Shown here piece after piece: positions 37,987 through 45,151 of a DNA stretch of 64,000 nt (positions within the stretch are counted from its first letter, which is position 1; each line of letters opens with the position of its first letter). A program made the translations under genes and the position numbers. The notes beneath the pieces are model-generated. The model made no database searches. It saw nothing but the letters and a program-made list of their open reading frames with translations, and was not told where the DNA came from. Where the stretch lies: the IMG/VR virus record IMGVR_UViG_3300008116_000002; one strand, written 5' to 3'. Source of the stretch: a virus. Lineage: Duplodnaviria > Caudoviricetes.

Positions 37987-38665
37987 TACATTTGAGGTTT
38001 GGCCTAGAGCCAGAGAGTTAGCAGATAAGATTATATCTCGTTTTAATTCTTATGAGCGAGAGGATATTAATCCTGAGTATGAGATACACGTAGATAATTT
38101 TACGTGGAAAAATTACTTATGGAAGTCTGAAAAATTTAAAAGAGCTCACATAGAAATTGTAGACGCCTCTGAAACTAAAAAGATGTGGGTTATGCATATG
38201 TGCATTTATCCTCATTATAATTCTTCTGATCCAATATTTGGTTTTGATATTGTCTGCGGTAAAAATAAAATTACTGGGGCTTTTCACGATTTCTCTTTTA
38301 TTGGATTATCTGATCTTTATAATTGGTTTCAAGGAACCATGCTAAATGTTAAATGGTCTAAACCAAGAGATCTTCCTGATTGGGCAAAGAAGATCTTTAG
38401 TCCAGCAATGCTAGCAGCAGGAAACATTCAAACCGAAGAAGAGTTTAATCAATTGGAAAAAGTCGTTATAGACAATCTTGATTATTACCTTTATAATGTA
38501 GGTAAAGTAGTAACAGGTTCTGATTTTTCTTCGAGGCATGATCATTATTGTAAGAATCAGAAATTAAACCCACACACTCCTGCCATGATGGAAACTTTTG
38601 GTGTTGATAAACAGGTTTTTGCGAAATTTATGGACGAAGTTTTATTCCCAGAGAAACATGGATAA
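37979..38665 (+). CDS. ferredoxin-dependent bilin reductase (PcyX/PcyA/PebS family)
   Basis: HMCIYP...PIFGFDIV...AFHDFS, YCKNQKLNPHT; overlaps the heme oxygenase gene. Confidence 0.85.
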   Translation: MSDTFEVWPRARELADKIISRFNSYEREDINPEYEIHVDNFTWKNYLWKSEKFKRAHIEIVDASETKKMWVMHMCIYPHYNSSDPIFGFDIVCGKNKITGAFHDFSFIGLSDLYNWFQGTMLNVKWSKPRDLPDWAKKIFSPAMLAAGNIQTEEEFNQLEKVVIDNLDYYLYNVGKVVTGSDFSSRHDHYCKNQKLNPHTPAMMETFGVDKQVFAKFMDEVLFPEKHG

Positions 38666-38924
38666 AGAAATAGAATACATTTTAACAGACAGTTTAATTA
38701 TAACCAAAAAATTTAGATCACCCAATGAGTTTTCTTTACATATTGAAGAGAGGGTTTTGAGAGAAAAAATAGGATATATGGATGCGGTTATTCAATATTG
38801 TGAGGAAGTAGATATAGATATTGAATCCATATCTAAATTAATTAATCAGTCTCTAAAAGATAAAATACAGAATGAGGCTGAAGAAAATAACTTTATGAAA
38901 CGTAGAGGAAAATTGCCCCTGTGA
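38658..38924 (+). CDS. 33: late transcription coactivator gp33
   Basis: FSLHIEE...YMDAVIQYCEE...LKDKIQNEA; position before gp59. Confidence 0.85.
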   Translation: MDKEIEYILTDSLIITKKFRSPNEFSLHIEERVLREKIGYMDAVIQYCEEVDIDIESISKLINQSLKDKIQNEAEENNFMKRRGKLPL

Positions 38925-39978: not shown

Positions 39979-40905
39979 ATGGCATTTCAGTCATTATCTG
40001 ATTTAAGAAAATCTCGTGGCGGTTTCGACAAACTAATGAAGGAAGTCGAAAAGATTGCAAGCCCACAAGGAGAATCAAGAGCTGACGATCGCTTCTGGCA
40101 ACCAGAGGTAGACAAGGCAGGTAACGGTTACGCTGTTATTCGATTCTTAGCCCCACCTAAAGGAGAAGAACTACCCTGGGTTCGTATTTGGAATCATGGT
40201 TTCCAAGGACCTACAGGAAAGTGGTATATTGAAAATTCTCTTACTACACTAAATAAAACAGATCCCGTTTCAGAATATAATACTGAATTGTGGAACTCTG
40301 GGTCTGAAGCGAATAAGGAAATTGCTCGTAAGCAAAAGCGTAAGCTAACTTATATCGCAAATATTATGATTGTCAAGGATCCTGCTCATCCAGAGAACGA
40401 AGGTAAAGTATTTCTTTACAAGTTCGGTAAGAAGATCTGGGATAAGATTAAAGATCTAGCAGATCCACAATTTGAAGACGAGAAGCCAATCAATGTATTT
40501 GACTTCTGGGAAGGGGCAAACTTCAAATTGAAGATTCGTAATGTAGAAGGCTATCGTAATTACGATAAGTCTGAATTTGAATCGCCTAGTGCTTTATCTG
40601 AAGATGATTCTGCAATTGAGGAAATTTGGGGTAAGCAATACTCGTTACTTCAGTTCCTCGATGAAAAGAATTTTAAATCCTATGACGAATTGAAGAAGAA
40701 ATTCGATATGGTTATGGGACTTGCAGGTGGCACTATTTCTACTAAGAAAGCTGAAGATACTTACTTAGATGAGGAATTCGAATCTGCTCCAAAGGTACAA
40801 GCAACTGCTGCGCCTAAGCAGGTTGAAAAGGCACCTAAGAAGGAAGTAGACTTTGACGACGATGATGAGTCTTTGTCCTACTTCGCTAAATTAGCTGAAG
40901 ATTAA
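39979..40905 (+). CDS. 32: single-stranded DNA-binding protein gp32
   Basis: DDRFW, GYAVIRFL, WYIENSLTT, YKFGKKI, GANFKLK, acidic tail ...SYFAKLAED. Confidence 0.95.
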   Translation: MAFQSLSDLRKSRGGFDKLMKEVEKIASPQGESRADDRFWQPEVDKAGNGYAVIRFLAPPKGEELPWVRIWNHGFQGPTGKWYIENSLTTLNKTDPVSEYNTELWNSGSEANKEIARKQKRKLTYIANIMIVKDPAHPENEGKVFLYKFGKKIWDKIKDLADPQFEDEKPINVFDFWEGANFKLKIRNVEGYRNYDKSEFESPSALSEDDSAIEEIWGKQYSLLQFLDEKNFKSYDELKKKFDMVMGLAGGTISTKKAEDTYLDEEFESAPKVQATAAPKQVEKAPKKEVDFDDDDESLSYFAKLAED

Positions 40906-40933
40906 AAAAAAGCCCGCTTCGGCGGGCTTTTTA
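40904..40933. terminator. bidirectional Rho-independent terminator
   Basis: A8-GCCCGC-TTCG-GCGGGC-T5 between convergent transcription units. Confidence 0.92.
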
Positions 40934-41031
40934 TTTCATTCTAATTTAGTAATTCCGTCTTAAAGTTATTTTCTTCAGCCTCATTCTGTATTTTATCTTT
41001 TAGAGACTGATTAATTAATTTAGATATGGAT

Positions 41032-42849
41032 TCAATATCTATATATCGAACCATATCTTCGCACAAAATCTTTAAAATTCTCATTTGTATTTTCAGATGT
41101 CGACGAATTTGGAGTTACTGTTGTTGAATTTTTTCCAGAATCGCCTTGGCCTAAAATGTTATTGGTAACATTGTTAACTGTGCCACTAAATTTTTCTTTT
41201 GTATAATCAATAAGTTCTTCACTTAGCTTAGTTGTATCTTCTATAGTCTTTGCTAGGGCTGTACCTAGTCCGGGAGCAAGATTAATTTTCTGATCTTGTA
41301 TTGTTATTTCGCCTAATTGATCTAAAAACGGCACTATCTTTTTCTCGATATCTTCCTTAGAAAGAAAATCTAGATTGTCTGAAAATTTTTCTAATGCTTC
41401 ATTTGCTTCTTTTAGTAATTTATTGAATGCGCCTTGATTCTGCAATTCATCATATTCTTGTCGCAGTTTTGCTTCTTCATTTTTCTGTGCTATAATATCT
41501 TTTTCTCTTTGTTCGGCTTCATCTAGTTTCGCCATTTGTCCTTCGGTGAGTTTCTGCCCATTTATCATTCCACCTTGAGATTTAACCCATCTTGCATATT
41601 GCCCTTCGGTCCATTTCGTTCCGTCACCCAACGGGCTATCTAGATAACGTATATCTCCCATTGTACCTCTAACATCATAGGTTTCACCTGGAGCTAAATC
41701 TCTACTAGCATTAAAAGGCCCAGGCATATTTCCGAATAATGATCTATTAGAAGGCGAATACGGACTTCCGAATAATCTACTAGTATTTCTCGCGCCTTTA
41801 TTTGGCAAACCCCCTTTAACAATATCCTCAATAGTTGCATCTGGATCATCAGGTAATAACATAGTAAGTCCTAATGCAGCTAATGCCCCCGCAAGCCCTC
41901 TTCCTGCACCACCTGGAGAAAATCTACTAGGTCTTCCTGTTCTAACATTCTCGGCATCTACAACTCGAGGACCATACTTTCCTTCATTCCAGGGGAAACG
42001 CGATTTGTAATTTGGGTCGAAGGGTGCGCCTCTGCCCGGACCTTCCAATAGAAGGCGGTTACCTCCTGGTCTTGTTGTGGGGCGGGTGCCTCCTCCGCTC
42101 GGGTTCTTTCCATCAGGAGGTAGGACAACAGGAGGCTGGCCCCCAGGTTTCTGTCCACCAGGGAAATTGGCCCCAGGCATTCCAGGAATCGTAGGAAATA
42201 ATCTAGATAATTTAGTAATTCCGTCTACTAATTTATCGAACCCATTAAGTAAACCTTTAAAACCGGACATTAAAGTACTTGATAATAAAGAGATCGCACC
42301 AACTATTCCTGCAAGAAGAATTTTACCTAAGCCAGATAACATTCCTCCAGATGCGCCGCCGCCCATATCTAAACCCGACATTCTTCTAGCAATAGCTTCG
42401 GCAAGCTTTTCTCTCTCAATTGCACGTTTAGAATCTGTACTTTGCCTAGCTATAAAATCTATATTTCTAGCTTGTCTTTCGGTTATATCCCTAAGTGCGC
42501 TCATTTCCTCCATCATTTTTTGTTGATATTTAGATGGGCCGAATACCTTACTAAATAAATTTGTAAAGAACCCTTTATCGGGTTGCGCTTTACCTCCAAA
42601 GGATGAGCCGAAAGATCCCTTGCCCTTTCCTGCTAGATAACTTTTTATTTCTGAAATACCGCTACCAAGTTTAAAAACTTCCCTTTGTATATCTTTATTT
42701 TCTTTATTAGATGAAGATCTCCTATTCTTAAAGATTTCATCAGATATAGTATGCAATATCTTCGATTGTTCTCGAAGACTATCATTTTGTGCCTTTAGGC
42801 TATCTATGATAACTCTATCGGTTGGGTTCAACTTATCGAAAGGTAACAT
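41032..42849 (-). CDS. putative tape-measure/baseplate hub protein (gp29-like position)
   Basis: 605 aa, helical, with amphipathic G/L-rich segment; directly follows gp26/gp51. Confidence 0.5.
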   Translation of the reverse strand: MLPFDKLNPTDRVIIDSLKAQNDSLREQSKILHTISDEIFKNRRSSSNKENKDIQREVFKLGSGISEIKSYLAGKGKGSFGSSFGGKAQPDKGFFTNLFSKVFGPSKYQQKMMEEMSALRDITERQARNIDFIARQSTDSKRAIEREKLAEAIARRMSGLDMGGGASGGMLSGLGKILLAGIVGAISLLSSTLMSGFKGLLNGFDKLVDGITKLSRLFPTIPGMPGANFPGGQKPGGQPPVVLPPDGKNPSGGGTRPTTRPGGNRLLLEGPGRGAPFDPNYKSRFPWNEGKYGPRVVDAENVRTGRPSRFSPGGAGRGLAGALAALGLTMLLPDDPDATIEDIVKGGLPNKGARNTSRLFGSPYSPSNRSLFGNMPGPFNASRDLAPGETYDVRGTMGDIRYLDSPLGDGTKWTEGQYARWVKSQGGMINGQKLTEGQMAKLDEAEQREKDIIAQKNEEAKLRQEYDELQNQGAFNKLLKEANEALEKFSDNLDFLSKEDIEKKIVPFLDQLGEITIQDQKINLAPGLGTALAKTIEDTTKLSEELIDYTKEKFSGTVNNVTNNILGQGDSGKNSTTVTPNSSTSENTNENFKDFVRRYGSIYRY

Positions 42850-42852
42850 GTA

Positions 42853-42987
42853 TTATCCCTTAAATGCTTTTTGTTTCAATTTTTCGTTTTGTTCGCTAAT
42901 GTGTTCTATAAGCATAGTGACGTAAATATCTCTTTCCCATGGTAACATATTTTCTATTTCAGTTAACGAATAATTATGACTATTCAT
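42853..42987 (-). CDS. 51: baseplate hub assembly catalyst gp51-like (not in ORF track; frame open back to 43050)
   Basis: MNSHNYSLTEIENMLPWERDIYVTMLIEHISEQNEK. Confidence 0.8.
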   Translation of the reverse strand: MNSHNYSLTEIENMLPWERDIYVTMLIEHISEQNEKLKQKAFKG

Positions 42988-43037
42988 TAATGAAAAATTT
43001 AACTTATAATAGTTAAGAAGACCCTCATGAGAAAGAG

Positions 43038-43730
43038 TTAAACGAAAAAATTTTGTAGACCTTCTAATTTAACTTCATTCTTAGTTCCACACTTACTACA
43101 ATTTTGCTCAACAGTTTGAGTAATTTTTGGCATGGTAACAAAGAATTTTTCTAACTTTTCAAACTGACTTCTTGAAAAAGAATTAACAAATTCTATTAAC
43201 TCTTCTTTTGTATAATCTGTGTATTGTTGCTCATCTGTAAATACCACTTTGATACAGGATGACAGCATCTCTACAATGTTTTCCGAATTAAAATTTTCAT
43301 ATATTGATGCGATTTCATCAAAAACAGGATATCTCATCTCCAATCCAATAGTATCAGTAATTAAAATTTTGGTAGTATGCTCAGAATTTTTTTTAACTTC
43401 TGCCCGAGTAATATCTAATTCAAATTCAATCTTATTTTCACAATTATTACAAGTTAAAGTTAAGGAAGTTTTTTCTCCTATTGATTTCGCTCTAATATTA
43501 ATGAACAAATATTCAATATCAAAATTAGGAAGTTCTTTAACTTTTAGTTTATTAAATGTACAAACATCTACTAAATCTGTAACTATTTTATAAATTTCTT
43601 CAGAATCCGACTCTAATGCGGTTAAGAGAATTTTATATTCTTTAACTAAGAATGGTCTATATTTTACTTTTTCTTCGGTAGAAGGTAAAATCAATTCATA
43701 GGTTGGTGTTTCTAATTTAGGTAAAGCCAT
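43038..43730 (-). CDS. 26: baseplate hub assembly chaperone gp26
   Basis: MALPKLETPTYEL...RPFLVKEYK, DIEYLFINIRAKSIGE, CxxC, LEGLQNFF. Confidence 0.88.
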   Translation of the reverse strand: MALPKLETPTYELILPSTEEKVKYRPFLVKEYKILLTALESDSEEIYKIVTDLVDVCTFNKLKVKELPNFDIEYLFINIRAKSIGEKTSLTLTCNNCENKIEFELDITRAEVKKNSEHTTKILITDTIGLEMRYPVFDEIASIYENFNSENIVEMLSSCIKVVFTDEQQYTDYTKEELIEFVNSFSRSQFEKLEKFFVTMPKITQTVEQNCSKCGTKNEVKLEGLQNFFV

Positions 43731-44581: not shown

Positions 44582-45151
44582 TTATTTGTACTTTCTTTTA
44601 GTGTTTTTCCAAACCTTGCCCATACTTTGTTGTTTAAATCCTTCAACCGGTAGCATGCTGGCGGTTTCCCAATCGGCAAAATTTACTTTCAGGAATCTAC
44701 TTCGCAATTGCGTATTAAGATATCGTTTTACGCAAGCAGTCGCAGCTAAAAATCTTGAAGAACTATTTAGTATTTGCCAGGATATTTTAATTTTAGTATT
44801 TTCGTCGACTCTGCTATCTGTGGCTAATTTTTTTAAATCTCCCAACAACTTAAATCTTGCGCCGTATGGAAGATAGTGCAGATTAATTCCTATAAATCCG
44901 TCAGCAGTTTTGGAGAAAGGAAGAACTAATGGGACGGTATCATAATAGGGTAATACGTTTTTATATTTTGGATCATATAAAAACATATACATATATCCAG
45001 GAGTAACCACATTTGATAATCTTTGTCCGCGTATCAGTTGTTGCCCCGTTAGTCCTGAGGATAAATTTATGACAGTGTTTTTATACCAGCGAAAAGCTTT
45101 ATCCTGGTCACCCTTCTGCATTCTAATCTGAGTAAAGATATTTTCAGCCAT
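44582..45151 (-). CDS. 2: DNA end protector gp2
   Basis: MFLYDPKYK..LPYYD..PLV, GINLHYLP, CVKRYL. Confidence 0.9.
   Translation of the reverse strand: MAENIFTQIRMQKGDQDKAFRWYKNTVINLSSGLTGQQLIRGQRLSNVVTPGYMYMFLYDPKYKNVLPYYDTVPLVLPFSKTADGFIGINLHYLPYGARFKLLGDLKKLATDSRVDENTKIKISWQILNSSSRFLAATACVKRYLNTQLRSRFLKVNFADWETASMLPVEGFKQQSMGKVWKNTKRKYK

Follow-up and report, generated by a model that had tools for sequence, protein, structure and literature searches.

A conserved slippery heptamer at the 3′ end of gp26 probably joins gp26 and gp51 into one recoded tail assembly chaperone gene in T4-like phages

The window analysed here is a stretch of 64,000 nt from a virus of the Caudoviricetes (IMG/VR record IMGVR_UViG_3300008116_000002). 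On its minus strand a gp26-like gene is followed by a small gp51-like open reading frame and then by a large open reading frame that resembles a tape measure gene. The gp26-like and gp51-like sequences are in different frames, and the question is whether they represent two genes or a single gene that is read in two frames. The initial annotation proposed the latter, a -1 frameshift pair in the manner of lambda G and GT. The features concerned are given in Table 1.

Table 1. Features at the gp26–gp51 junction and in adjacent genes, listed from the gp2-like gene toward the tape-measure-like gene (positions are those of the window)
Feature	Position	Strand	Basis
gp2-like DNA end protector gene	44582..45151	-	phrog_429, E-value = 4e-49
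Tail-tube-like gene, gp54-like by synteny with Vibrio phage nt-1	43745..44578	-	phrog_45, E-value = 5e-40
gp26-like gene, short tail assembly chaperone form (TAC-N), 230 aa	43038..43730	-	PF12322, phrog_150
SD-like GAAGG (Glu-Gly codons), possible dnaX-type stimulator	43060..43064	-	inferred; 9 nt upstream of the heptamer
Slippery heptamer T_TTT_TTC	43044..43050	-	invariant in all relatives carrying the -1 extension; absent from T4-type gp26
gp26 zero-frame stop TAA	43038..43040	-	sequence and open reading frame list
-1 frame extension, 63 codons and stop	42853..43044	-	open frame; alignment with T4 gp51; coding-type codon-position entropy
gp51-like open reading frame as called by the ORF finder, 44 aa	42853..42987	-	phrog_634, E-value = 4.5e-17
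Tape-measure-like gene, 605 aa	41032..42849	-	position, size and composition only

The 3′ end of the gp26-like gene reads ...CAA AAT TTT TTC GTT TAA. Relative to the gp26 frame, the TTTTTTC in this segment has X_XXY_YYZ phase, i.e. T_TTT_TTC, and only the codon GTT separates it from the gp26 stop, so that the slippery site one codon ahead of the stop, as initially annotated, is confirmed by both sequence and phase. Upstream of the heptamer the -1 frame displays stops every few codons and opens just 7 codons before it. Downstream it is free of stops to position 42853, which bears out the claim that this frame stays open into the gp51-like open reading frame; the ATG of the latter, at 42987, is in the -1 frame relative to gp26. 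The -1 frame product is FFRLTLSHEGLLNYYKLNFSL-MNSHNY... and the predicted fusion consists of gp26 residues 1–229 and the 63 aa extension, 292 aa in all, compared with 230 aa for the short form. The large open reading frame, for which the initial annotation gave a start 4 nt after the gp51 stop, begins at 42849, three bases past that stop.

The gp26-like protein shows a match to Pfam PF12322 (T4_baseplate) over profile positions 2–218 of 219 (E-value = 2e-63, 214 bits against a family cut-off of 24.5 bits) and to phrog_150 (E-value = 5e-66). In the AlphaFold2 model (pLDDT 86.8, pTM 0.80), residues 1–90 give the best structure match with 3fgx, an uncharacterised Bacillus protein (Z = 8.1, rmsd 3.8, 85 residues aligned). 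The HK97 tail assembly chaperone 2ob9 (Z = 7.1, rmsd 4.1, 84 aligned), YqbN 3klu (Z = 6.6) and the PLE protein 5ir0 (Z = 5.1) come next, a Z below 8 being not decisive by the tool's own note; unrelated structures remain at Z of 4.5 or less, below these four. Foldseek gives a probability of 0.72 for gp26 with 2ob9, and the whole gp26 model finds no match in the PDB at E ≤ 0.001. The resemblance of the predicted N-domain to the HK97 chaperone is suggestive. Beyond the N-domain, weak matches to small zinc-ribbon proteins are found. Two CxxC pairs (residues 94, 97, 215 and 218) hint at a zinc ribbon in the C-terminal part of the chain. Three of these four are missing in cyanophage S-SSM7, and in alignment A2 the only invariant cysteines are C57 and C94, thus the metal site is not conserved across the family.

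The 44 aa gp51-like open reading frame overlaps positions 76–116 of the 121 in phrog_634, the 'baseplate hub assembly catalyst'. It also matches the tail of phrog_150 (profile positions 252–277 of 282), which indicates that some members of this family hold both parts in one chain. Inspection of the sequence reveals no Shine-Dalgarno (SD) sequence before its ATG. These features, and the poor conservation of the ATG described below, make the 44 aa open reading frame most likely just the terminal portion of the extension and no independent gene.

The phage of the window is part of an uncultured clade, with a gp26 no more than 45% identical to that of any cultured phage. The close relatives compared with it are 80 IMG/VR loci whose gp26 is 52–83% identical to that of the window; the junction is intact in 78 of these, and 56 junctions are unique. 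Sequence counts across relatives are phylogenetically non-independent. The gp51 homology starts 53 nt past the gp26 stop and in the -1 frame in all 78 intact junctions. Among the 56 unique junctions AAT, TTT and TTC are all invariant, and directly upstream the conserved Glu, Gly, Leu and Gln residues are encoded by 2, 4, 6 and 2 synonymous codons, respectively.

The site also occurs in more distant phages. In cyanophage S-SSM7 and Vibrio phage nt-1, GAT TTT TTC precedes the same -1 open reading frame, and TTTTTTC is 100% invariant in 77 unique cyanophage and KVP40-type junctions. The codon that precedes it in these 77 is GAT, AGT, TCT, GCT, GGT or AAT, coding for Asp, Ser, Ala, Gly or Asn, and its third base is always T. 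Six distant cultured phages (Methylophilales phage Melnitz, Pseudomonas phage Milchi, Stenotrophomonas phage Ps15, Acidovorax phage ACP17, Aeromonas phage AsFcp_4 and Delftia phage PhiW-14) carry T_TTT_TTY followed by a -1 open reading frame with the gp51 motif; the run in Melnitz has eight consecutive T. This open reading frame is unannotated in GenBank for ACP17 (L169:3262–3416) and AsFcp_4 (L170:3217–3384). Conservation of the heptamer was the first check proposed by the initial annotation, and the 56 window-clade junctions, the 77 of cyanophage and KVP40 type and the six distant phages all keep the site, with the heptamer itself invariant in about 130 unique junctions of the two clades.

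A second conserved element lies upstream. The Glu-Gly codons of the relatives read GAGGG or GAAGG and end 9 nt before the heptamer, GGAGG is found in many cyanophage-type sequences, and G is invariant at positions -11 and -10. The Glu codon is GAG in 46 of 63 (73%) and 69 of 77 (90%) unique genes of the two clades, compared with a GAG share of 13% and 29% among Glu codons elsewhere in the same genes. This is an enrichment with an odds ratio of about 18–21, for which p-values are overstated as the sequences are related. Downstream, RNAalifold on 26 junctions gives a consensus structure of −3.4 kcal/mol with 0 compensatory pairs. The window itself displays a 6 bp hairpin 5 nt past the heptamer, which was rejected as a conserved stimulator (z = −0.99). 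By analogy with dnaX, the GAGG-type element is a putative frameshift stimulator. It is conceivable, and we put it forward tentatively, that the shift is a structure-less one of the dnaX type driven by the SD-like GAGG(G) 9 nt upstream. If so, the stimulator would be conserved in all T4-like phages other than those of the T4 group, and the short 'gp51' of more than 500 phage genomes, whether annotated or missed, would represent no independent genes. The main text of PMC4066793, which deals with frameshift efficiency, contains no mention of the heptamer TTTTTTC.

Comparison of these sequences indicates that a programmed -1 frameshift signal is real and deeply conserved. Very probably gp26 and 'gp51' are one recoded gene, in which a -1 shift on the heptamer gives the predicted long chaperone. 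Most ribosomes would end at the gp26 stop and produce the 230 aa chaperone. A minority would slip back one base on U_UUU_UUC, where the two tRNA-Phe would re-pair from UUU-UUC to UUU-UUU, and would then read CGU UUA ACU... in the -1 frame to form the 292 aa protein with the gp51 motif. One gene would thus yield a short and a long chaperone through -1 slippage of some ribosomes on TTTTTTC. By analogy with lambda, the part common to both forms would hold the product of the adjacent tape-measure-like gene, with the extension bringing in a tube or hub protein; these are the presumed binding partners of the short and long forms.

The same gp26–gp51 fusion would result if RNA polymerase added an extra U in the T6 run. 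We consider such transcriptional slippage very unlikely, even though the conserved element is a homopolymer run, which reaches eight T in Melnitz, and downstream RNA structure is not conserved. Six T is a short run for efficient slippage by bacterial RNA polymerase (reviewed in PMC5009743), and the run stays TTTTTTC, without lengthening, across about 130 unique sequences. The enriched SD-like element, at a spacing like that in dnaX, fits a ribosomal mechanism. Moreover, the 'other mechanism' referred to in PMC10885494 is two separate genes, and in PMC12846349 the poly-T motif is described as a -1 frameshift signal. We infer that the slippage is ribosomal, and likewise its efficiency.

The 20 spacer codons that precede the gp51-like ATG bear on a further reading, a separate small gp51 made from its own start or by termination-reinitiation, with the T run merely reflecting a conserved Phe-Phe. 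In the -1 frame the mean column entropies of the spacer at the three codon positions are 0.44, 0.22 and 1.02, similar in pattern to the 0.66, 0.30 and 1.02 of the 'gp51' open reading frame proper. This supports protein-like evolution of the spacer in the -1 frame, i.e. the protein-level constraint that the initial annotation had suggested looking for before the ATG. Stops in the 19 codons after the heptamer are found in the -1 frame of 0 of 56 unique junctions, compared with at least one in the 0 and +1 frames of 56 of 56, and in every homologue examined the stretch from the site to the gp51 motif is free of stops. The ATG of the window is replaced by ATA, ATC, ATT, GTA or GTT in 22 of the 56 unique relatives, and 37 of 56 have neither ATG, GTG nor TTG in the spacer. 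Spacer conservation together with loss of the start codon thus points to a conserved peptide that has no start of its own and is reachable from the gp26 frame alone.

A separate gp51 is for these reasons slightly less likely again than transcriptional slippage. The ATG in the window is in frame, and gp51 is annotated as a gene in databases. Relatives of the cyanophage and KVP40 type often have an ATG that overlaps the gp26 stop or lies a few codons past it, and separate initiation is possible in these. However, the start is not conserved and in the window it is without an SD sequence, so that gp51 made solely from its own ribosome binding site and ATG does not agree with the sequences. Ahead of any ATG, the residues R-L-T/S-L/M-S-H show protein-level conservation and line up in frame with T4 gp51. 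The codon preceding TTT TTC ends in T whatever the amino acid, and T4-type gp26 retains the Phe-Phe without the T run.

In the T4 group two separate genes are present. A Mosigvirus and four other T4-type genomes show gene 26 followed by gene 25, with gene 51 separate and divergently transcribed. The 250 aa T4-type gp51 contains PF12322 over residues 1–201 (E-value = 5e-59) and phrog_634 at its end, and a mafft alignment places it collinear with the conceptual fusion of the window across the junction, the 'spacer' included. T4-type gp51 is a gp26 paralogue with the extension attached. The Phe-Phe of T4-type gp26 is encoded by TTC TTT or TTC TTC after GAA. The T run is kept only where the extension sits in the -1 frame, and the T4 group constitutes a natural control. 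A tree of the gp26 domain, made to date the T4 duplication, is unresolved with T4 gp26 and the gp51 N-domain both on long branches, and gives no direction of duplication. The C-terminus of T4-type gp26 (L173–L176, about 2100–2130) reads Phe-Phe-Arg-Tyr/Cys-Leu, similar to the Phe-Phe-Arg-Leu-Thr-Leu that starts the -1 extension in frameshifting relatives. This end may be a relic of a formerly fused form. Overall, the proposal that gp51 is the frameshift extension of gp26 is supported, and each of the refuting conditions named in the initial annotation came out in its favor.

Elsewhere in these genes T is the third base of only 36–42% of codons, and TTC makes up 25% of the Phe codons. From these shares, about 7% of independent lineages would be expected to carry NNT TTT TTC; it is observed in all, thus codon usage does not explain the pattern by chance. 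A functionless coincidence of a heptamer and an open -1 frame, for which it may be said that T runs are common in an AT-rich genome and that 20 open codons are only mildly unlikely in a single sequence, is hardly credible given this expectation and the retention of the site across clades, including in phages of high-G+C Acidovorax, Delftia and Stenotrophomonas.

The 605 aa protein encoded behind the extension shows no Pfam, PHROG or tblastn match, and BLASTP against the syntenic proteins of S-SSM7 and nt-1 is not significant. It displays glycine-rich hydrophobic stretches, and a language-model feature match to the PF25671 T4_Tape_measure cluster (0.91) is weak and serves as a lead only. Its assignment as a tape measure by position, size and composition is likewise a lead. 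Syntenic open reading frames in relatives (L001–L076) consist of 485–635 aa with 17–44% identity, vs. 52–83% for gp26; the tape-measure-like protein evolves far faster than the presumed chaperone. A complex prediction for gp26 (A2) with the tape-measure-like protein (A3) gives a score of 0.00, which counts neither way on binding. On the other side of gp26, the gene order gp2-gp54-gp26 is common to the window and Vibrio phage nt-1. In Delftia phage PhiW-14 (L171, 3259–3465), a terminator comes after gp26 and the -1 open reading frame, and then a helicase gene on the opposite strand. With no tape-measure-like gene behind the pair in PhiW-14, adjacency to such a gene is not universal.

An inverted repeat is found near the end of the tape-measure-like gene, with arms at 38812–38898 and 40958–41044 (87 nt, 99% complementary, 2059 nt between). 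It encloses three small open reading frames and a gene resembling T4 gene 32, which we take to encode a single-stranded DNA-binding protein. The final 13 nt of the tape-measure-like open reading frame lie within the second arm, which also overlaps a 47 aa open reading frame that repeats part of a 108 aa open reading frame at 38598–38924. The segment could be invertible, recombined or an assembly artefact. A strong hairpin resembling a bidirectional terminator (40907–40932, 11 pairs, T runs on both sides) separates a plus-strand gene ending at 40905 from the minus-strand tail gene block.

Vladimirov, Gautam and Davidson (Virology 2022;566:9–15, doi 10.1016/j.virol.2021.11.003), as cited in PMC10885494 and PMC12846349, identified the tail assembly chaperones of T4-like phages as gp26 and gp51. 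The PRFect paper (PMC10885494), where it cites this work, states that some T4-like phages have a short gene and a long fusion gene with no frameshift. The initial annotation had expected a link between the T4 hub chaperones and the G/GT system. The architecture of T4-type gp51 and the HK97-like N-domain support it, but the link is not new and, going by these citations, appears to have been published in 2022 for T4-like phages. Since the principle appears to be published, the scientific surprise is small; the window represents a new member, from an uncultured clade, of an already described recoding system. If the recoded gene is accepted, T4-type contractile tails would use the same short/long chaperone logic as lambda-like tails. 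Sullivan et al. (2010; PMC3037559) reported that cyanophage and vibriophage gp51 is without the first ~200 residues of T4 gp51, and did not mention a frameshift; a frameshift would explain why 'gp51' in these phages is one fifth of the T4 gp51 length. The practical value is in annotation. A tblastn search with the extension matches 562 phage records, mostly from its first residues. Some of these records list the extension as a small gene of its own and some as hypothetical, and others carry no annotation for it; the long chaperone form is missing from every record examined individually.

A -1 frameshift is conserved in the tail chaperone genes of long-tailed phages (Levin et al., 1993; Xu, Hendrix and Duda, 2004; reviewed in PMC5009743, which also summarises the model of lambda gpG, gpGT, gpH and gpV). 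The pair in the window and T4 gp26/gp51 belong to the same family (PF12322, phrog_150, phrog_634), and in both the short and long proteins share the N-terminal part. However, T4 and its close relatives carry separate divergent genes without the slippery site, whereas in the window a single gene is present. As in lambda gpG/gpGT, a -1 shift would take place close to the 3′ end of a small gene that immediately precedes a tape-measure or tape-measure-like gene, and a common N-terminal part is combined with a C-terminal extension; the predicted fold of the gp26 N-domain also shows a suggestive similarity to that of the HK97 chaperone. The differences from lambda are that its heptamer is G_GGA_AAG rather than TTTTTTC, that gp26 of the window is twice the size of gpG and has an additional zinc-ribbon-like C-terminal part, that gpG and gpT show no sequence similarity to the window proteins, and that the phage of the window has a contractile T4-type tail with a hub.

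The dnaX gene of Escherichia coli has an A_AAA_AAG heptamer, an SD-like stimulator about 10 nt upstream and a downstream hairpin, and its -1 shift truncates the protein. The GAGG/GAAGG found 9 nt upstream of the heptamer in the window and its relatives, enriched beyond codon usage, would be the counterpart of this stimulator. In contrast to dnaX, a conserved downstream hairpin is absent, the heptamer is different, and the shift would extend the protein. In gene 10A/10B of phage T7 (mentioned in PMC12846349), a -1 frameshift takes place on T-rich sequence close to where the capsid gene ends. It resembles the window in that a T-rich tRNA-Phe site lies near the zero-frame stop and gives a minor product extended at its C-terminus, but the protein is a capsid protein, not a chaperone, and is non-homologous. 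The pair in the window would be the counterpart of T4 gp26/gp51 and, functionally, of lambda gpG/gpGT.
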